A stretch of 64,000 nt of DNA from a virus: the IMG/VR virus record IMGVR_UViG_3300046542_000168, positions 1-64,000 of that record; one strand, written 5' to 3'. Shown here in pieces: positions 40,745 to 57,406 of the stretch. The notes below the pieces were generated by a model. The model was not told the DNA's origin. It ran no database searches and was given only the letters and a program-made list of their open reading frames with translations. The translations under genes were made by a program, and so were the position numbers. Position 1 is the first letter of the stretch. Each line of letters starts with the position of its first letter.

Positions 40745-41134
40745 TCACTTCTTAAGCGGAACTCCTTTCACCTTAGATACACGCTTGTGCATACGGATCA
40801 ATGCAGTAGATGCAGTGCCCATATCCAGTGGATACTTAGGGTTCTCGAAAATGCTCTTGAAGTTGTTTGCCATGCGACTGATAGCCATGACGTTACCAGG
40901 GACGTAGCCCTTGGTATTGTCGATGCGGTCGATGGTGATGTCTGTGGGCCTCGGTGTGCTCAGGCTGGGCTTAGTCATAAGCACTCCTGTGTAAGGGCAC
41001 ACCGTGCAACGCATCATGTTTCGGAAGCTAACTAGGCTGATTGCCCAGTTAATGTTTCGCTCGCTAGCGGAGCGGGACTTGCCTATGTAGTATTCAGCGA
41101 CAAAGCGCTCAAACTCGGCGGAAATGAATTTCAT
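40745..41134 (-). CDS. Putative His-Me-finger-like endonuclease
   Basis: CPYTG...TIDRIDNTKGYVPGNV. Confidence 0.65.
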   Translation of the reverse strand: MKFISAEFERFVAEYYIGKSRSASERNINWAISLVSFRNMMRCTVCPYTGVLMTKPSLSTPRPTDITIDRIDNTKGYVPGNVMAISRMANNFKSIFENPKYPLDMGTASTALIRMHKRVSKVKGVPLKK

Positions 41135-41168
41135 GGTCTTACTGACTTCCTGACTTACTTACTTACAG

Positions 41169-41447
41169 TTAACGAGTGAATCGGCCTGTCTCAGAGTCAC
41201 GCTGACGCACACCAACTAACCCGAATGGGGTGTCTTGCCATACTTCAGCTACAAGCTTGTGGACGTACCGAGTCTTACCACCCAGGCATACGCGGTGATA
41301 CCGAAGCTCAGGTTTGTCCGGTTGCGGAGTGATGCTGGAGGCAGTGAGGAACCGTCCGGTCCTCGTGCTCCACACCCGGCCATCCTCAGTCACATAGTGG
41401 TGAGGGAAGCCCTTGCATTTCCGTACCTCTACATCCGGCAAGATCAT
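41169..41447 (-). CDS. NUMOD4/HNH-endonuclease-derived protein lacking the HNH core
   Basis: YVTEDGRVWS...YVHKLVAE, then an unrelated tail. Confidence 0.6.
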   Translation of the reverse strand: MILPDVEVRKCKGFPHHYVTEDGRVWSTRTGRFLTASSITPQPDKPELRYHRVCLGGKTRYVHKLVAEVWQDTPFGLVGVRQRDSETGRFTR

Positions 41448-41749
41448 CGCTGTTGGCCCCGTCGTGTGTGGGTTCCAGTGCAGGTTGGGGTCTTCCGGCT
41501 CTTCGAAATCTCCGAGCTGTTGACCGTATAGCGACCCTTGCCGAATAGCTCGTCACACGCCTCCTGAGCCTTCGCCCTGGCACGAGTGTGGTAGTAGTAG
41601 TACTGACCCATGGCAGACCGTGTAAAGAAGGTTGCCGGGGCTTCGAATTCGTAGTCTGCGAACTGCTCAAACTCTACGACGCTGTACTGTACACCGGCAG
41701 AAACCTGCTCGGCAGGGGTGAAATCGTTTTCTTGCGCACTTACGTTCAT
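41444..41749 (-). CDS. Phage hypothetical protein, first gene of the leftward arm
   Basis: AAGGA RBS, downstream of a promoter. Confidence 0.7.
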   Translation of the reverse strand: MNVSAQENDFTPAEQVSAGVQYSVVEFEQFADYEFEAPATFFTRSAMGQYYYYHTRARAKAQEACDELFGKGRYTVNSSEISKSRKTPTCTGTHTRRGQQR

Positions 41750-42501: not shown

Positions 42502-42957
42502 TTGACGACCATGACGAACACAGCACATAACATCATAGCAAAGCCCCTAATTAGAATGGCAAGTAAGAAACTCGGACTTAGGATATGTTATCTGTCGAGT
42601 CGCGCAGTAAGTACTATTCAGAAAATGCCCGATGGTAAGTATGTTGTTGTAAACGTCTACGAAAAGAAGATTTCCGAATACACTAAATATTCACAGGCTA
42701 GAAAAGCAGCGGAAAGAGCCTCCATGGTCCCCTTCCGTCGCAAGAGCCCGAAGGAGGTTCCAGATACAGTGCTTCAGGTCTGCCACAAGGCGGGTAGAGC
42801 CATTAGCACAATCCAGAAGATGCCAGATGGAAAGTGGATGGTTGTGAAGCTGTATGAAGAGCGCGTCAATGAGTACGACGAATACTCAGTGGCAGAAGAA
42901 GTCGCAACAAGAGCTGCAATGCAACACGCACCTCGCACCACTAAGGACGCCGCGTAA
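42502..42957 (+). CDS. Hypothetical protein with a duplicated ~45-aa domain (start uncertain)
   Basis: RAVSTIQKMPDGKYVVV and RAISTIQKMPDGKWMVV. Confidence 0.65.
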   Translation: MTTMTNTAHNIIAKPLIRMASKKLGLRICYLSSRAVSTIQKMPDGKYVVVNVYEKKISEYTKYSQARKAAERASMVPFRRKSPKEVPDTVLQVCHKAGRAISTIQKMPDGKWMVVKLYEERVNEYDEYSVAEEVATRAAMQHAPRTTKDAA

Positions 42958-43082
42958 TAAAGGAAGTCTGTAAGGACGTGCCGAGCATCGAACAACAGTG
43001 AAGTGGTTTGGGGAGATGTATGCCGTCGGCACAACATAGAGAGGCAGTAAGGGATTTCTCTACAGCGAACAAAGATACCAGA

Positions 43083-43319
43083 ATGGATATCGGCGGTCAG
43101 GTAGCAGAACGGAGAGAAGCACTAGGGCTCACCTCAACGCAACTGGCAGAAGACGCACAGATCACGGAGATGAGCTTGCACATGCTAGAGCGTGGGGGTG
43201 GATTTGATGGAGGGCATACTGTGGCTTGTGCCGTCCTTAAAGCGCTAGCTAGGCTTGAAAGCGCGAACGAGGGACGGCCTGACTTCCAGTTGGCCCGGAT
43301 CAGATTCATGAGAAATTAG
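43083..43319 (+). CDS. XRE-family HTH regulator
   Basis: RREALGLTSTQLAEDAQITEMSLHMLERG. Confidence 0.75.
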   Translation: MDIGGQVAERREALGLTSTQLAEDAQITEMSLHMLERGGGFDGGHTVACAVLKALARLESANEGRPDFQLARIRFMRN

Positions 43320-43329
43320 CTGAAACAGC

Positions 43330-43358
43330 TTGACAAATCGGAGAAGCCATGGTATAAA
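43330..43358 (+). promoter_or_regulatory. Strong sigma70-like promoter
   Basis: TTGACA-17-TATAAA. Confidence 0.75.
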
Positions 43359-43428
43359 CCCCGACTTCTTCGATTTGTTTTCTCTTACACTAAGCCGATT
43401 TTCTTCCACACTTTCTCAACTTTCCCTG

Positions 43429-43456
43429 TTGACAGGAGTTGAAAGTCGTGTAGTAT
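43429..43456 (+). promoter_or_regulatory. Second sigma70-like promoter
   Basis: TTGACA-16-TAGTAT. Confidence 0.55.
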
Positions 43457-43537
43457 GGCGTCTCCAGTTTGCTCAAGGGCAGACTGACGTAAGAACAGAA
43501 TTTATTTCAGTAAGTCAGTAAGACAGGAAGAACTAAA

Positions 43538-44152
43538 GTGACCCAGATTTCCGTAACTCGTGCTCTCGCCCAGGTTAAGAGCCTGAATGACCGCATTCAA
43601 CGTGGCACCGTAGCACAGTTCATCGCAATTGCCGTAGGTGGTAAGGTTTCCGGTAAGTCCTCTGTTCAAGAGGCAGAGCAAACCGTTACTAGCAACCTAC
43701 AGTCCGTCCAGGGCCTAATTGCCCAGCGGAACACCCTCAAATCAGCCATCGTCAAGAGCAACGCGACCACTACGGTGTCGATCGCCGGTAAAGTCATGAC
43801 TGTGGCTGAGGCCATCGAGCGTAAGTCCTCGATCATCCTCGAACACAACCTACTCCAGCAGATCCGTGGCCAGCAGAATCAAGCCATTGCTGCTGTAGAT
43901 CGCCACAACGTCGATGTACGTCAACGCTGTGACAATCTCCTGGCCCAGGCTTATGGCCGTGACGTGAAGATCAGCGAGGCCGACAGTCAGGCTATCACCG
44001 GCCCATACGAAGAGAAGCACAAAGCTGCTCTGGTAGATGCGAACAAGCTGGACACTGTTATCGAAAAGATGCAGGCCGAGTTGGACGCTTTTACCCTGGA
44101 AGTAGACTTCGCCCTGAGTGAAGTAAACGCTAAGACTCTGATCGAAGCGTAA
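43538..44152 (+). CDS. Coiled-coil helical-hairpin protein (possibly DIP1984-like)
   Basis: ISVTRAL...LNDRI, MTVAEAIERK, VDFALSEVNAKT; all-helical; family resemblance is from recall only. Confidence 0.8.
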   Translation: MTQISVTRALAQVKSLNDRIQRGTVAQFIAIAVGGKVSGKSSVQEAEQTVTSNLQSVQGLIAQRNTLKSAIVKSNATTTVSIAGKVMTVAEAIERKSSIILEHNLLQQIRGQQNQAIAAVDRHNVDVRQRCDNLLAQAYGRDVKISEADSQAITGPYEEKHKAALVDANKLDTVIEKMQAELDAFTLEVDFALSEVNAKTLIEA

Positions 44153-44166
44153 CACAGTTCAAACAA

Positions 44167-44477
44167 GTTTTCTCTTGTGACAGCGAGTTGTCTTAACTTA
44201 GCTGGGCTTCTAGGGGTGAGCCTATCACCTCTAACAATTACTGGCATGTAATCATAAACGACCAGTCCCGCCATTTCTGGGACATATCCTTCGTAGGGAT
44301 TTTAAGCAGTGACTAAGTTCATCGCTCAACGTTTAACCAGTAAAGATGCAACGCTCAACGAAGAAACTTTTAAACAGGTAACTTCTAAAGGCCAAAGCTT
44401 CTAAAATCCCAGAACAAGGTTGAGTAGTGGTTAGCTATCGACTCTGACGACGCCCTGGGCTGCTGTTCACAAGAAAC
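44167..44477 (+). ncRNA. Candidate structured ncRNA with a 7-nt periodic AA tract
   Basis: 5' TCTTGTGACAGC pairs with 3' GCTGTTCACAAGA; internal hairpins; about 13 heptad units. Confidence 0.65.
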
Positions 44478-44484
44478 CCATTAT

Positions 44485-44560
44485 AGAGGATTGGCGAAGT
44501 GGGAACGCTACGGGCTTTGATCCCGTCATTGACTAGGTTCGATCCCTAGATCCTCTTCCA
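44485..44560 (+). tRNA. tRNA-Gln(TTG)
   Basis: ACGGG-CTTTGAT-CCCGT arm, GTTCGAT, CCA end. Confidence 0.85.
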
Positions 44561-44722
44561 CATTCGAAGTATCGTTGAAAACTACGGTTGTCTACGCGCA
44601 AACGCCGGACTTCGAACTCTACATACCTGGGAACTCAAGCGCCTTGGTTTGTACAATCCACTCGACCAACCGGATGGATTCAGACGCATGGGATCGTCTC
44701 TAACTTATCCCTACCTATTTCT

Positions 44723-44798
44723 ACCCAGGTAGCTCAACTGGCAGAGCAGCGGCCTCCAAAGCCGTTGGTTGTAGGTTCGACTCCTACCCTCGGTGCCA
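44723..44798 (+). tRNA. tRNA-Trp(CCA)
   Basis: GCGGC-CTCCAAA-GCCGT arm, CCA end. Confidence 0.9.
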
Positions 44799-44802
44799 CT
44801 TC

Positions 44803-44878
44803 GCAGATATAGATTAAACGGATAAATCACGCGGCTTTCAACCGCACGTTCCGAGTTCGATGCTCGGTATCTGCACCA
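44803..44878 (+). tRNA. tRNA-Glu(TTC)
   Basis: GCGG-CTTTCAA-CCGC arm, CCA end. Confidence 0.85.
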
Positions 44879-44900
44879 TTATTCAAGTTAAGGAAGACTC

Positions 44901-45044
44901 ATGGCTCAGAAGCCTTACGATGCAACTAAAGAACACACCCCGTTCGACCGTACCCGTAAAACAGATGGGAAAGGTCGTCACCCTAATAAGGGGTTGAGTT
45001 CGAAGCACCCGGTGTCGGGCAAGAAGAACCGATACTTCGAATGA
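44901..45044 (+). CDS. Small basic protein (47 aa; not in the ORF track)
   Basis: AAGGAAG RBS; MAQKPYDATKEHTPFDRTRK... Confidence 0.5.
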   Translation: MAQKPYDATKEHTPFDRTRKTDGKGRHPNKGLSSKHPVSGKKNRYFE

Positions 45045-45180
45045 TTCCACCAGGGAGGCTATAGGGGTCTTATGACCGCTCCCCGCTGCTGAGGCTACTC
45101 AGTTGTCCCGATGACAGGCAACAGCGTCCTACCCGCTCCCTGGAGCGCTGAGGCACTAGAGAATAGTGCCGTTTATATTC

Positions 45181-45256
45181 GCATTCTAAGCTAACCCGGT
45201 GAAAGCGACGGATTGAAAATCCGTAGAGACTGGTTCGACTCCAGTAGATTGCACCA
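45181..45256 (+). tRNA. tRNA-Phe(GAA)
   Basis: ACGGA-TTGAAAA-TCCGT arm. Confidence 0.88.
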
Positions 45257-45398
45257 TAACAATGAGAACCAGGGTACTGGTTGAGTAGCAGCCCATGGAG
45301 CCGCCAAAGGCGCTGGGCCCGGTTCATTGTTGTACTGTACGCACTGGCCAGCGTACTTCGCGTTTACGGTAGAGGTCGCAAACCGCTTTATTTTCCCT

Positions 45399-45475
45399 AC
45401 TGGTATAGTTCAACTGGAAAGAGCATCCGCCTTCTAAGTGGTTAGTTGGGGGTTCGAATCCCTCTACCAGTGCCA
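45399..45475 (+). tRNA. tRNA-Arg(TCT)
   Basis: CCGC-CTTCTAA-GTGG arm. Confidence 0.88.
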
Positions 45476-45610
45476 GATATGCAAGAAAGTTGTAGAAAGT
45501 TCGAACTATTTTCATATTGCCTATTGACAAAATAGAAAAGTGTGAGAATATTCACGGACTCGAAGTTACCTTCGACTGAATTACCCCTCTTGTATGTAGT
45601 TCCCCTCTTA

Positions 45611-45686
45611 GCCTAATGATTCCTCTGGGAAGGAAGACGCACTGTCGATGCGTTCGCTGCGGTTTCGAATACCGTATTAGGCGCCA
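45611..45686 (+). tRNA. tRNA-Asp(GTC)
   Basis: ACGCA-CTGTCGA-TGCGT arm. Confidence 0.82.
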
Positions 45687-45691
45687 TATTT

Positions 45692-45769
45692 GCCCTTGTA
45701 GCTCTTAACTGGCAGAGCAGCCGCCTTGTAAGCGGACGGTTGGGAGTTCGAATCTCTCCTGGGGCACCA
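45692..45769 (+). tRNA. tRNA-Thr(TGT)
   Basis: CCGC-CTTGTAA-GCGG arm. Confidence 0.88.
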
Positions 45770-45776
45770 TATTCTT

Positions 45777-45852
45777 TCCGGTATAGCTCAGTTGGTAGAG
45801 CAGCGGCCCGATAAGCCGTTTGTCACTAGTTCAAGTCTAGTTACCGGGACCA
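45777..45852 (+). tRNA. tRNA-Ile(GAT)
   Basis: GCGGC-CCGATAA-GCCGT arm (C at position 33). Confidence 0.85.
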
Positions 45853-45857
45853 TCTAT

Positions 45858-45931
45858 GGGCTGTAAGAATTACGACAGTTCGCCTGCCTTGCACGCAGGA
45901 AGCCAGGGTTTGACTCCCTGACGGTCCACCA
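45858..45931 (+). tRNA. tRNA-Ala(TGC)
   Basis: CCTGC-CTTGCAC-GCAGG arm; G3:U70 pair. Confidence 0.85.
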
Positions 45932-45999
45932 TTACAAATGCAGAGACTTACGGCTTATGTCGTTACAAGTCAAACCGGGGATATGCACCCCTTTACAAT

Positions 46000-46081
46000 A
46001 GCGAGAGAGTTAAGACTGTCTGGTGATGTCGCCCGGCTCATAACCGGCTGCTTTGTGGTTCGATTCCACCTCTCGCCACCA
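46000..46081 (+). tRNA. tRNA-Met(CAT), initiator-like, atypical D region
   Basis: CCGG-CTCATAA-CCGG arm; 1:72 mismatch; CCA end. Confidence 0.7.
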
Positions 46082-46085
46082 TATT

Positions 46086-46174
46086 TGAAGAGAGAACCTG
46101 GGTTCAAGTCCCTTGTCTCGGAAGGCCCGCCTGTATAACAGGGCTGATAGCTTAGTGGATTAAAGCGCTCTTCA
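46086..46174 (+). ncRNA. Circularly permuted tRNA-like element (T arm before D arm)
   Basis: TGAAGAG...GGGTTCAAGTCCC...GGGCTGA-TA-GCTTAGTGGATTAAAGC-G-CTCTTCA. Confidence 0.6.
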
Positions 46175-46245
46175 TCTCACACACTGGGTTGCTCCCCATG
46201 TGAACACTCGCCACAGAGTGTATAAATAAGTGTGGCACGATCAAT

Positions 46246-46322
46246 TGGACATAAGCTAACTAGGCGGAAGCGGGTGGCTGTTAACCACCAGATGCTAGGT
46301 TCGAATCCTAGATGTCCAGCCA
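46246..46322 (+). tRNA. tRNA-Asn(GTT)
   Basis: GGTGG-CTGTTAA-CCACC arm. Confidence 0.9.
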
Positions 46323-46438
46323 ACTTTGCGACGTGAGGTTTTATGCCCACGATCCTTCCAGGGCTTACCTGGGAGAGATGAGAGTCGCGCATTAAGCTGT
46401 CTGCTAGGCCCGGACGTTAAATGGGCGACAAGATCAAT

Positions 46439-46514
46439 ACCCCGATGGCTGATCGTCTTAGGCAATCGCCTGCAAAGCGATATCAGGCTGGTTAGATTCC
46501 AGCTCGGGGTTCCA
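46439..46514 (+). tRNA. tRNA-Cys(GCA)
   Basis: ATCGC-CTGCAAA-GCGAT arm; U73. Confidence 0.85.
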
Positions 46515-46522
46515 GTTATAAA

Positions 46523-46608
46523 GGTCGTTGTAGAGTCAGATGGCTACTGACAGGGCGCTGTAAACGCCCCGCTTCTGCTAGAGGTTCAATTCCATCCTTC
46601 GACCACCA
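46523..46608 (+). tRNA. tRNA-Tyr(GTA), imperfect stems
   Basis: GGGCG-CTGTAAA-CGCCC arm, CCA end. Confidence 0.72.
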
Positions 46609-46694
46609 ATTTGCCGTATAGGTGCCATACCCGAAAGCATTCGTGCAGTGAGGGCAGGTTATCGTCCCCTTCCCAGGGCGGCAGACGCGAGAAT

Positions 46695-46771
46695 GAGACG
46701 TTGGCCGACCGGCGCTAGGCAACAGGCTTTTAACCTGTATTAATCTGGTTCGATTCCAGAGCGTTTCACCA
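46695..46771 (+). tRNA. tRNA-Lys(TTT)
   Basis: ACAGG-CTTTTAA-CCTGT arm. Confidence 0.88.
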
Positions 46772-46776
46772 ACAAT

Positions 46777-46843
46777 GGAGGGTCCGCTGGGACGGGACTA
46801 CTGAAGAAGTAGAGAGTGTGGTTAGAATCCACTACCCTTCGCC
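46777..46843 (+). pseudogene. Degenerate or minimal tRNA
   Basis: GGAGGGT/ACCCTTC acceptor stem, GTGG-TTAGAAT-CCAC T arm, shrunken D arm, no CCA. Confidence 0.5.
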
Positions 46844-46849
46844 TTATAT

Positions 46850-46937
46850 AGTAGATTGACCGAGAGGCCGATGGTAGGGGATTGCTAATCCCTACGGTGT
46901 AACAGCCGCACAGGTTCGAATCCTGTATCTACTGCCA
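46850..46937 (+). tRNA. tRNA-Ser(GCT)
   Basis: GGGA-TTGCTAA-TCCC arm, long variable arm. Confidence 0.9.
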
Positions 46938-47042
46938 TATTCCAGGCAAACAAAAGCCGCCTTAGTAGGGCGGCTCTTGACAACGAACTCTACCGTTCAT
47001 TGTAGGTGGGATGCACTGGCGTACTCCGAGGGGAATCCTATC

Positions 47043-47348
47043 ATGTGGACGAATGGCCGACAAGGCACCGGGTACGCGAAACTAACGCTCCTAGCCACCT
47101 CCAGGCTCGACTGTCACGTTTTACGATATATGCCTGGGGATAGCATTCCATCTCACACAGATAAGCTTGTGGACGGCAGGAAGCACTTCAGGATGAACAT
47201 CCGGCTAGCCGGTGAAGACACTTTCAAGTGCTGCAAGGTATTGTTTAGATTCTGGCGGGTTACGATCTTCCGACCGGACCTCTATGAGCACTCAGTACCG
47301 GCAGTAAAGAGAAAACGATACATGCTCAGCATCGGCTGGGTAATATGA
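47043..47348 (+). CDS. 2OG-Fe(II) oxygenase-like protein
   Basis: LRY...HTD...FRPDLYEHSV...KRY. Confidence 0.75.
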   Translation: MWTNGRQGTGYAKLTLLATSRLDCHVLRYMPGDSIPSHTDKLVDGRKHFRMNIRLAGEDTFKCCKVLFRFWRVTIFRPDLYEHSVPAVKRKRYMLSIGWVI

Positions 47349-47353
47349 TACAA

Positions 47354-47438
<85 letters not shown>

Positions 47439-47490
47439 TTTACAACGATTGAAGGTTGAGCCTATCGCTCCCTCTCGTTACAACGAATAC

Positions 47491-47578
47491 GGCGTGTAGG
47501 CTCCATGGGGAGATGCGGTCTTGAAAACCGTCCCATTGCAGAGATGTGGTGAGGGTTCGATTCCTTTATGCGCCTCCA
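47491..47578 (+). tRNA. tRNA-Ser(TGA), atypical
   Basis: GCGGT-CTTGAAA-ACCGT arm, long variable arm, CCA end. Confidence 0.72.
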
Positions 47579-47680
47579 ACTTAACGCACGAGACTGGAGG
47601 CTGAAATGCCCGTGCGATCCGGCCGATACGGCTCCCAGCCTTGAGCGGGTATGAAAGGATAATGCCTGTAACGCACAAAC

Positions 47681-47703
47681 AAAAACACCGCCTTTCGGCG
47701 GTG
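47681..47703 (-). terminator. Terminator for mvaT
   Basis: CACCGCC/GGCGGTG hairpin with T-run on the minus strand. Confidence 0.7.
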
Positions 47704-47723
47704 CTCAGGAACGCAAGTGAAGA

Positions 47724-48113
47724 TCAGCCCAGGATAGTTACCCAGCTCTCTACGGACTCATTACCCCACTTCGCTTTCCACTCTTTCAGAGTCTTGTGGT
47801 TGCCACCTTTCGTCTCGATGACTTCGCCGTTGTGCGGGTTTTTGTACTGCTTAACGTGACGCTGACGACGAGTAACGGAAGAGGATTTATCAGAAGCCTG
47901 CTTCGAAGACTTACCGCCGTGGCGACCGTCTGGGTCCATAATACCCAGGATGTCTTTCAACGACTTGCTATATTCGCCCATCAAGCTACGCAGCTTACCT
48001 TCGAATTCCAGTTCTTCTTGCAATTTACCGTCCGACTGGAGGGTAGCCATGCGGGCCTGGAGTTCTTTAATTGCGGCTTCTGTAGCGCGGTATTCAGCAA
48101 TAACTGACGACAT
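47724..48113 (-). CDS. mvaT: MvaT/TurA-family H-NS-like xenogeneic silencer
   Basis: EYRATEAAIKELQ...ELEFEGKLR...VKQYKNPHNGEVIETKGGNHKTLKEWKAKWG. Confidence 0.95.
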   Translation of the reverse strand: MSSVIAEYRATEAAIKELQARMATLQSDGKLQEELEFEGKLRSLMGEYSKSLKDILGIMDPDGRHGGKSSKQASDKSSSVTRRQRHVKQYKNPHNGEVIETKGGNHKTLKEWKAKWGNESVESWVTILG

Positions 48114-48207
48114 ATTTGCGTTCCCCATGGGATGTCTGTGTGATGTGTCAGAGGATATACACGGCTTATTATTATGTAAAGCCCTTAGTGTAAAAGTTTT
48201 TTAAAAT

Positions 48208-48284
48208 CTCGCTGTAGCTCAGATCGGTAGAGCGCCTGCTTTGGGAGCAGGAGGCCGGGGGTTCGATGCCCTCCAGCGTGACCA
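48208..48284 (+). tRNA. tRNA-Pro(TGG)
   Basis: CCTGC-TTTGGGA-GCAGG arm. Confidence 0.9.
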
Positions 48285-48299
48285 TATTAAGATGTAGTC

Positions 48300-48374
48300 G
48301 TGGGGCCGTGCTGCCTGGATGTAGCCATCAGGTTGTGACCCTGTTGTCGGAGTTCGAATCTCCACCTCACCCCA
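48300..48374 (+). tRNA. tRNA-His(GTG), atypical
   Basis: CAGG-TTGTGAC-CCTG arm; C73-CCA. Confidence 0.7.
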
Positions 48375-48379
48375 ATTTA

Positions 48380-48456
48380 GCGTGCTTCGTATAGCCAGGT
48401 TATTACCTCCGGCTTCCACCCGGATGACAACAGTTCGAATCTGTTAGCCCGCACCA
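48380..48456 (+). tRNA. tRNA-Gly(TCC)
   Basis: TCCGG-CTTCCAC-CCGGA arm. Confidence 0.88.
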
Positions 48457-48460
48457 ATTC

Positions 48461-48534
48461 GCTCGATTAGCTCAATGGGAGAGCAGAGCCCTTACAAGGC
48501 TTTTACGGTGGTTCGATTCCATCATTGAGCACCA
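48461..48534 (+). tRNA. tRNA-Val(TAC)
   Basis: AGCC-CTTACAA-GGCT arm. Confidence 0.88.
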
Positions 48535-56767: not shown

Positions 56768-57406
56768 ATGGCGTATCAACTCCCTAACGGATCTACTTTT
56801 GAATTTGCTAGCGGGTATACGCCGTTTTTAACAATCACGGCGATTTCTCGTGCTGCAAACGCTGTATGTACCGTATCAAGTCACACCCTAACAATCAACC
56901 AGATCGTAATGATTAAGTCTGGCTGGTGGGACATTGACGGACGCGCATTTAGAGTTTCAGCAGTTACGGCTACAACATTCACGTTGGCCGGTGCTGATAC
57001 TACAGATACAAAGAGGAACGTTGGAACTAACTACGGCACAGCCCGTGGAGTTACCGCATGGGTACAAGTACCCCAGATCCTCAATCTCACTCTCTCCGGT
57101 GGAGAGCAGCAATACACAACATTTAGCCCCTCACGTTCCGGCAAGGAAGTCAGTCGCCCCACTATAAAGAGTGCAGCGGTCATGACACTTGAGGTAGCTG
57201 ATGACAAATCCCTCCCCCTGTTTTCCACAATTGAACTTGCATCGGAAACAGAAGAGATTCAGGTGCAACGCCTGACACTTATTAACTCCGATTACATCTT
57301 GTACGCAAGCTTAGCCTCGATGACTAAGACGCCTAAGATGCAACGCGATCAGTTAATGACAAGAACAATTTCCCTGGCTCTCCAGGGAGACAACACCCGA
57401 TATTAA
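56768..57406 (+). CDS. Tail tube protein paralog
   Basis: MAYQLPNGSTF, SGGEQQ; homologous to 59085..59726. Confidence 0.75.
   Translation: MAYQLPNGSTFEFASGYTPFLTITAISRAANAVCTVSSHTLTINQIVMIKSGWWDIDGRAFRVSAVTATTFTLAGADTTDTKRNVGTNYGTARGVTAWVQVPQILNLTLSGGEQQYTTFSPSRSGKEVSRPTIKSAAVMTLEVADDKSLPLFSTIELASETEEIQVQRLTLINSDYILYASLASMTKTPKMQRDQLMTRTISLALQGDNTRY

Follow-up and report, generated by a model that had tools for sequence, protein, structure and literature searches.

A pseudoknotted RNA with a heptamer array behind genes of the T5.085 family: a candidate two-part module of phages and bacteria

The window analysed here comprises the first 64,000 nucleotides (nt) of the IMG/VR virus record IMGVR_UViG_3300046542_000168, the start of a complete phage genome of 107,407 bp with direct terminal repeats and a G+C content of 50%. 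On its + strand, positions 44173-44474 encode a 302-nt RNA, delimited by nhmmer and covariation, behind the gene of a 204-amino-acid (aa) protein (43538-44152, +) that belongs to phrog_1491, the T5.085 family. Comparison with relatives confirms that this is a conserved, pseudoknotted, structured non-coding RNA. We regard gene and RNA as one conserved two-part module in which the RNA most likely works with the upstream protein, a reading to which we give about an even chance. By the identity of the 204-aa protein, the nearest named relatives are vB_PF_Y1-MI and the phiPsa374 group, Pseudomonas phages of ~93-100 kb.

From 5' to 3', the RNA consists of stem P1, a GA dinucleotide, P2, P3, P4, a variable slot, the heptamer array and a 3' domain. 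The closing stem P1 joins TCTTGTGACAGC (44173-44184) to GCTGTTCACAAGA (44462-44474) through 12 bp with one bulged U, exactly where an earlier note, made from the letters of the window alone, had placed it; compensatory changes occur in 11 of its 12 pairs and 93.5% of its alignment cells are paired. An invariant GA (44185-86; alignment columns G18 and A19) bridges P1 and P2. The 5' strand of P2, GUUGUC (44187-44192), pairs with 44446-44451 and shows compensatory changes in five of six pairs. P3, also identified by covariation (5/6 family pairs), forms a pseudoknot between 44199-44203 and 44433-44437, the latter lying in the loop of P6. The P4 hairpin AGGGGUGA/UCACCUCU occupies 44212-44232, its strands being AGGGGTGA (44212-19) and TCACCTCT (44225-32), with compensatory changes in all eight pairs. 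Behind it, the poorly aligned variable slot (44240-44302) holds three small hairpins in the window copy.

The 3' domain closes the array. The 5' strand of P5, CCCAG (44408-44412), is placed by covariation within a conserved AAAUCC anchor and pairs with 44455-44459, crossing P2 and P3 in a pseudoknot; 97.3% of its cells are paired and three of its five pairs show compensatory changes. P6, another covariation-based hairpin (44418-44443), pairs GGUUG (44418-22) with CGACU (44439-43): 93% of the cells of its four aligned pairs are paired, and its sequence varies little. The 3' strands of P2 (44446-51), P5 (44455-59) and P1 (44462-74) follow in succession on the + strand, from 44446 to 44474. With the 3' strands of P3 and P2 enclosed by P5 and P6, two pseudoknots arise. 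The core of the RNA thus has six helices, two of them pseudoknotted, and presents a ~95-nt loop of 13 heptamers. All the hairpins picked out by the earlier note are present (GTCCC/GGGAC, ATCCTT/AGGGAT, P4 and CCCAG/CTGGG at 44408-12/44455-59); the pseudoknots, the variable slot with its tRNA-like parts in relatives and the wide distribution of the pair did not figure in it.

The z-score of the minimum free energy of the element is modest (-2.37), so the case for an RNA rests on comparison with relatives. We aligned 15 elements; their partner proteins share 42-74% identity with that of the window. The consensus fold of this alignment has compensatory changes in 31 of 37 pairs; in a fuller, hand-written structure model, where the two crossing helices P5 and P6 were added and 42 pairs counted, changes on both sides occur in 34, in line with the proposal of a genuine structured RNA. 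Paired cells amount to 89.4%, against 36-48% when the partners are slid by 1-3 columns, and the covariation score is 0.616 against 0.11-0.14 in the slid versions; none of 500 shuffles matches the observed pairing or covariation measures. G-U pairs are frequent (e.g. columns 47/436, 349/412 and 52/422) and would become A-C mismatches on the opposite strand, which identifies + as the strand of the RNA. An nhmmer profile of the RNA hits the window at 44167-44479 with an E-value of 3e-62, and the RNA is single-copy in the 107-kb genome. In distant members this profile detects only the array and the 3' domain.

The array (44311-44405, +) comprises 13 degenerate heptamers with the consensus N-U-Y-A-A-A-G, defined by periodicity, unit parsing and the consensus fold, which leaves it unpaired; the units are predicted to be single-stranded. 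The tract of roughly 7-nt period reported in the earlier note indeed carries the highest spectral power in the entire 64 kb. With 15.2 at a period of 7.5, it is the maximum over all 91-nt segments and all four bases, where the 99.9th percentile is 10.1 and the runner-up, within a coding sequence (CDS), reaches 13.0. This runner-up is a T signal of period 7.25 at 56931-57021, inside the CDS of a 212-aa protein of the structural region (56768-57406); we regard it as unrelated and coincidental. The autocorrelation of A in the tract has z-scores of 4.2 (lag 7) and 4.8 (lag 15). With units parsed by an iterated weight matrix, the logo reads N-U(0.80)-Y-A(0.83)-A(0.84)-A(0.68)-G(0.53). Across the family, in phages of hosts from Pseudomonas to Bacillus, arrays have 11-15 units at a mean spacing of 7.3 nt; judged from these sequences, the array is conserved as an array, with unit count and spacing kept across hosts. 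The array of Bacillus phage Deep Blue has strong UCAAAG units and weak ones by turns; this alternation and the excess of lag 15 over lag 7 in the window hint at a two-unit super-repeat.

Two other readings of the tract were set aside. A GTG-initiated open reading frame (ORF) of 31 aa in the ORF list (44309-44404) overlaps the array, so the element is not strictly ORF-free, as first described; this ORF is not conserved, since a start-like NUG is kept in relatives but the frame closes after 6-21 codons (6 in locus L011). We also tried the heptamers as complements of anticodon loops: no unit of the 13 in the window fits a loop of the 18 phage tRNAs without a mismatch, the best leaving one (Phe and Asn). 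The family consensus AUCAAAG is exactly complementary to the loop CUUUGAU of this phage's tRNA-Gln.

To follow the pair beyond the window, we collected 80 viral loci that code for proteins related to the 204-aa one. Downstream of the gene, a period of ~7.25 recurs at the same offset, accompanied by common sequence blocks and stems. In most loci nhmmer places the RNA just 3' of the gene on the same strand; of the 11 loci with no nhmmer hit, 10 still have the array and the AAAUCC anchor. Overall, the RNA stands behind the gene in ~79 of the 80. In T5 (NC_005859), it lies in an unannotated 363-nt gap after T5.085 (43142-43504). The T5 record annotates a separate 719-nt 'RNAX, stable RNA with unknown functions' at 40848-41566, directly 5' of tRNA-Arg. 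The RNA also occurs in Vibrio phage Chester, Klebsiella phage Iguana, the Erwinia jumbo phage RAY, Bacillus phage Deep Blue, Lactococcus phage AM5 and Pseudomonas phage Y1-MI; at its place, the records of these six leave 360-560 nt empty or carry a spurious small ORF. 'Hypothetical protein' CDSs annotated over the RNA, as at L202:1692-1841 in Iguana and in several T5-like records, are probably spurious gene calls. With T5, the seven named phages infect Escherichia, Pseudomonas, Vibrio, Klebsiella, Erwinia, Bacillus and Lactococcus, and the heptamer RNA is found in Felix-O1-like, SPO1-like, phi92-like and jumbo phages.

The pair is not confined to phages. Among 80 bacterial loci, in Bacillus, Lysinibacillus, Brevibacillus, Paenibacillus, cyanobacteria and others, the RNA follows the gene in 72 by profile and in 70 by periodicity. 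In Bacillales, the pair stands alone among unrelated housekeeping genes (permease, methyltransferase, protease, two-component regulator), which leaves the protein as the only constant companion of the RNA. In cyanobacteria, it lies inside long tRNA arrays. Such arrays are spread horizontally and induced together with rtcB under translational stress, and Anabaena all4315 is reported to be a hypothetical gene induced by translational stress, with homologues tied to tRNA arrays in other cyanobacteria (PMC8421152).

A scan for three heptamers in a row, made without regard to the protein, yielded 87 loci. The gene is present in 14 of them, and 13 of these have the array 110-220 nt past it. In the remaining loci, the match is short, confined to repeats and never extends to the 3' domain: no full-length RNA separate from the gene was found among the 87. 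Thus the homologue check suggested in the earlier note, and the link to the upstream gene that it supposed, come out positive, with the periodic tract and stems found again behind the homologous gene in almost all relatives. At the level of the loci compared, these surveys show the RNA and the protein gene to be co-oriented and genetically inseparable.

The slot 5' of the array differs in content from lineage to lineage. Of 70 distinct elements, 7 have a perfect T-arm there, where 0.02 would be expected. In Erwinia phage RAY, the slot matches YrlA (RF02553) with 44.5 bits and an E-value of 1.8e-7, over model positions 23-87 only and below the gathering score of 69 bits; this module (L201:1647-1710) is a permuted tRNA-like structure with a T-arm, a loop-closed acceptor stem and a D-arm. 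The region of the RAY module has no Ro60 gene in view. Nested tRNAs lie in the slot in L038, L246, L252, L258 and L272, with complete ones in L038 and in several cyanobacterial copies, and tRNA genes flank the module in many phage and bacterial loci. Other structured RNAs occur in these loci. Skipping-rope RNA (RF02924, above its gathering score), a tRNA mimic according to a 2026 preprint, adjoins the module at L036:2651-2738 (a viral contig) and L218:3519-3647 (Paenibacillus), and a twister-P5 ribozyme lies at L223:87-144.

In the window, the RNA starts 20 nt after the stop codon, probably as a 3' extension of the protein's transcript, and a consensus scan finds no promoter-like or terminator-like site in the interval between gene and RNA; across relatives, it begins 10-100 nt past the stop codon. 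Ten nucleotides separate the end of P1 from tRNA-Gln(UUG) (44485-44560, +; ARAGORN and Rfam), which opens a single array of 18 tRNA genes (44485-48534; ARAGORN). Processing of the tRNA-Gln 5' end would leave the RNA with a 10-nt tail; the earlier suggestion that the following tRNA sets the 3' end thus suits this phage; in most relatives, a Rho-independent terminator stands there instead. RNA-library data of T5-like phages, available as assembled contigs whose depth cannot rank the parts of a transcript, include contigs that span both gene and RNA. Contig X11 stops at 4005 of L068, 7 nt beyond P1, and in X9 the summed contig depth drops ~100-fold after 3973, which weakly suggests that the RNA ends shortly past P1. 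We infer that gene and RNA are co-transcribed.

Of the two strong promoters announced upstream of the gene, one passes our consensus scan: TTGACA-16 nt-TAGTAT at 43429-43456 (+), with 10 of 12 matches. The other, a promoter-like TTGACA-17 nt-TATAAA read from the sequence at 43330-43358 (+), fails the rule requiring T at position 6 of the -10 hexamer. A Shine-Dalgarno-like AGGAAG, likewise read from the sequence (43525-43530, +), is followed 7 nt downstream by the GTG start.

The 204-aa protein, an ORF supported by a profile match, fits phrog_1491 with an E-value of 2.2e-65, residues 1-203 covering profile positions 2-208 of 211. A homologue is found in 745 phage records, 720 of which cover at least 80% of the protein. 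It matches no Pfam, NCBIfam or PADLOC family. The AlphaFold2 model (predicted local distance difference test, pLDDT, 87.8) combines long helices with four short β-strands, so that the protein is mostly helical, as the earlier note had it, and not all-helical. With this model, Foldseek finds no match at E < 0.07 in the PDB; the wide structural search VIA has syntaxin on top (Z 9.1), as expected for any helical bundle; BFVD returns uncharacterised phage proteins only, and the ESM Atlas unnamed clusters only. The DIP1984 family (NF038048; PDB 3kdq) gave scores at noise level: an E-value of 0.036 for the window protein against NF038048 (cutoff 70 bits), below 0.01 in just one of 37 members, 0.2 for a profile against 3kdq, and a Foldseek probability of 0.44.

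Databases label this protein a 'tail fiber protein', an identity for which we find no support: there is no fibre among the Foldseek or VIA matches and no Pfam domain. The gene lies in the early or tRNA region here and in T5, and bacterial copies are found outside prophage context. The label appears to be an unsupported, widespread misannotation.

Modelling predicts that the protein forms a symmetric, strand-swapped homodimer. The two-copy prediction scores 0.70 against 0.00 for the best of three controls, with 100% contact agreement between runs and a partner pLDDT of at least 90. In a benchmark, the same mark was passed by 20 of 30 proteins solved as one-chain pairs and by one of 23 solved as single chains, counts that are only rough for this protein since our own alignment was used. 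The earlier note had imagined an oligomer or filament of the protein along the array; the single structural result that bears on the oligomer is this predicted dimer, neither ring nor filament.

How might the two parts work together? The protein would be made beside its RNA and, as a dimer, would bind it. The heptamers could then serve as a multivalent landing pad, gathering several dimers on one RNA or bridging several RNAs. The complex would act in tRNA metabolism or translation-related RNA metabolism, during phage-host tRNA conflict in phages and during translational stress in bacteria; we suggest this role because the module accompanies tRNA arrays and because its slot accepts tRNAs or tRNA-like parts. 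The strongest argument for the partnership is that the protein appears as the sole constant neighbour of the RNA, across phages of distant hosts and in stand-alone bacterial copies alike. A bolder extension, which we hold to be a distinctly doubtful one, would have the dimer, with its valence of two, build a higher-order particle or network together with the RNA and its dozen sites, a new class of ribonucleoprotein whose distribution would match that of Ro60-Y RNA. Large lytic phages and horizontally spread tRNA arrays would carry it along, and in phage-host conflict and translational stress it would serve to capture, protect or process tRNAs or their nucleases.

Several observations weigh against the partnership itself. 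The protein is near neutral, not basic (isoelectric point 6.84; family median 6.4), and Pfam, Foldseek and VIA searches reveal no recognisable RNA-binding domain. Its most conserved motif, the invariant MTVAEAIERK (residues 87-96), falls in the predicted dimer interface and not on a free surface, and a two-fold dimer, if the model is right, would be no natural reader of direct repeats arranged in tandem on a single strand. Of four contigs from RNA libraries, two (those of X2 and X6) continue beyond the predicted 3' end of the RNA. The linkage of gene and RNA could, moreover, reflect cis regulation instead. The lack of an RNA-binding signature and the predicted dimer symmetry seem to us the strongest of these counterarguments.

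Proteins that read repeats are well known. TRAP on the trp leader and HutP on hut mRNA use the identical subunits of an oligomer to recognise short, evenly spaced, single-stranded repeats. These repeats are triplets, (G/U)AG or UAG, separated by short spacers and placed in 5' leaders, where they serve attenuation; the proteins are β-rich rings. The heptamer RNA shares with them an evenly spaced run of short single-stranded repeats. It differs in its unit, the heptamer NUYAAAG, in its partner, a helical protein with four short strands and a predicted dimer, and in the setting of the array, the closed loop of a stand-alone RNA behind the gene.

The array might alternatively act as a sponge or decoy, its single-stranded heptamers titrating or diverting some conserved factor of the cell that binds or cuts RNA, with the neighbouring protein accessory or unrelated to binding. 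Examples of such a factor are an endoribonuclease, PNPase, S1-type domains and a tRNA-targeting defence nuclease. CsrB/RsmZ, CrcZ and the type III antitoxin ToxI each carry one short motif many times per RNA and bind many copies of a protein. Their motifs are GGA in hairpin loops, AANAANAA, or 36-nt repeats that are cut by the toxin. The multivalent single-stranded array recalls the protein-titrating members, CsrB/RsmZ and CrcZ, and the early-gene position, the strong promoters and a protein with no RNA-binding features all suit such a role. RNase E prefers RN|WUU, and the junction between units, A-G|N-U-Y, with the best-conserved U two bases past it, resembles this preference. However, the unit consensus is common to phages of Gram-negative and Gram-positive hosts and to chromosomes, so the target would have to be universal, unlike RNase E and Hfq. 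A sponge would not require a protein gene of its own that is always found beside it, and bacteria carrying the module would titrate their own factor. Unlike the heptamer RNA, none of these titrating RNAs, nor ToxI, is known to have a partner gene fixed upstream in the same transcript. We consider the sponge unlikely.

A tether resembling Y RNA is less probable again. Its closed stems would bind the partner, while slot and loop would recruit tRNA enzymes or an exoribonuclease, like Ro60-Y RNA-PNPase, for RNA quality control. The likeness to Ro60 (Rsr) and YrlA (RF02553; PMC4201824) is manifold: a closing stem of paired ends plus a module, an RNA beside the gene of a same-strand protein partner, a tRNA-like module in some members, and neighbourhoods of phages, tRNAs and RNA repair. 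The sub-gathering YrlA match of the RAY slot, the T-arms and the tRNAs nested in cyanobacterial copies point the same way, as does the co-regulation of long tRNA arrays with rtcB under translational stress (PMC8421152). T5-like copies and that of RAY carry GACGAAAG, which fits the 5' motif of YrlA, GNCGAAN0-1G (PMC4201824). Yet the exact motif occurs in just 7 of 57 elements, mostly T5-like, and the window has AGCGAGUUG instead. Nor does the window RNA contain a T-arm-like hairpin, a tRNA-like module or a YrlA hit, even at an E-value of 10. We found no Ro60/TROVE gene (PF05731) in the complete 107-kb genome; the partner here is a small helical protein, a predicted dimer of an unnamed family. 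The heptamer RNA is also threefold longer than Y RNAs, pseudoknotted and dominated by an array that they do not have, so that the tether leaves its most conserved feature unexplained.

The RNA may also act only in cis, as a 3' untranslated region whose fold protects the mRNA from 3' exonucleases or which serves as an operator for autoregulation by the protein, with no function in trans. Its constant place in the 3' untranslated region of the same gene and the RNA-library contigs that join the two agree with this. On the other hand, ~300 nt with two pseudoknots and 13 units far exceed what stabilisation needs, most relatives already have a terminator hairpin after the RNA, and nested tRNAs imply that in some lineages tRNA processing cuts the RNA from the mRNA. 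We therefore hold a purely cis role to be very unlikely. That the heptamers are instead DNA sites, iterons or protein sites of an origin, packaging or partition site, is scarcely credible: short direct repeats in an AT-richer spacer would fit, but it is one strand that is conserved, its six helices having G-U pairs and compensatory changes; the element, both in phages and in chromosomes, is always in sense orientation behind one gene; and a period of 7.3 mismatches the helical repeat of DNA.

No catalogued RNA family accounts for the element, as the earlier note had anticipated: against the + strand of 44150-44484, Rfam 15 returns nothing even at an E-value of 10, and in the RNA region of relatives nothing except the YrlA-like piece of RAY. 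In particular, RAGATH-27 (RF03100, a motif of 86 positions) gives no match in the element at E-values up to 10. It is absent at the RNA from this genome, ~60 related loci and 141 Lachnospiraceae genomes; its best hit in the genome lies elsewhere (E 4.1, 12.3 bits), and the main text of the 2017 survey does not mention RAGATH-27. No tmRNA is found by ARAGORN in the window or the genome, nor by Rfam, and the small ORF is not conserved. Type III toxin-antitoxin systems place ~36-nt repeats upstream of an endoribonuclease toxin; here, 7-nt repeats lie downstream of the gene, and PADLOC assigns no defence or toxin family to the 204-aa protein. GOLLD and ROOL (bioRxiv 10.1101/2024.12.08.627333) resemble the heptamer RNA as big, intricate phage RNAs of unassigned function, often beside tRNA genes, and differ in being larger, RNA-only cages with neither a dedicated protein gene nor a heptamer array; Rfam matches neither in the window element. 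Full-text searches of the literature brought up no account of the RNA or of T5.085, and they did not extend to a motif-by-motif comparison with the catalogue of 10,000 viral structured RNAs (PMC10690425).

The surroundings of the module hold further features. In the tRNA array region (44561-48207), ORF-free spacers 130-630 nt long are numerous, among them 44879-45180, 45932-46245, 46938-47353 and 47579-48207, and could be room for more RNAs or decayed tRNAs; one has a weak tRNA-Sec-like match at 46003-46076 (28.7 bits, E 0.016), where ARAGORN makes no call. Upstream, a 151-aa protein (42502-42957, +) consists of two copies of a ~65-aa unit (…ISTIQKMPDGK[YW].VV..YE…EY..YS…) and has no significant family match. 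Its gene lies directly 5' of that of a small helix-turn-helix protein (43008-43319) and of the module promoters.

For annotation, the finding would correct the 'tail fiber protein' label and the probably spurious small ORFs drawn over the RNA. T5 has been studied for seventy years, yet the gap behind T5.085 holds an unannotated RNA that is conserved like many ribozymes. Two pseudoknots, an array of ~12 protein-sized repeats in a fixed format and a constant pairing with one protein gene point to an uncharacterised ribonucleoprotein machine. The tRNA arrays, nested tRNAs and tRNA mimics around it would tie the module to tRNA-centred defence and counter-defence in phages and to translational stress in bacteria.

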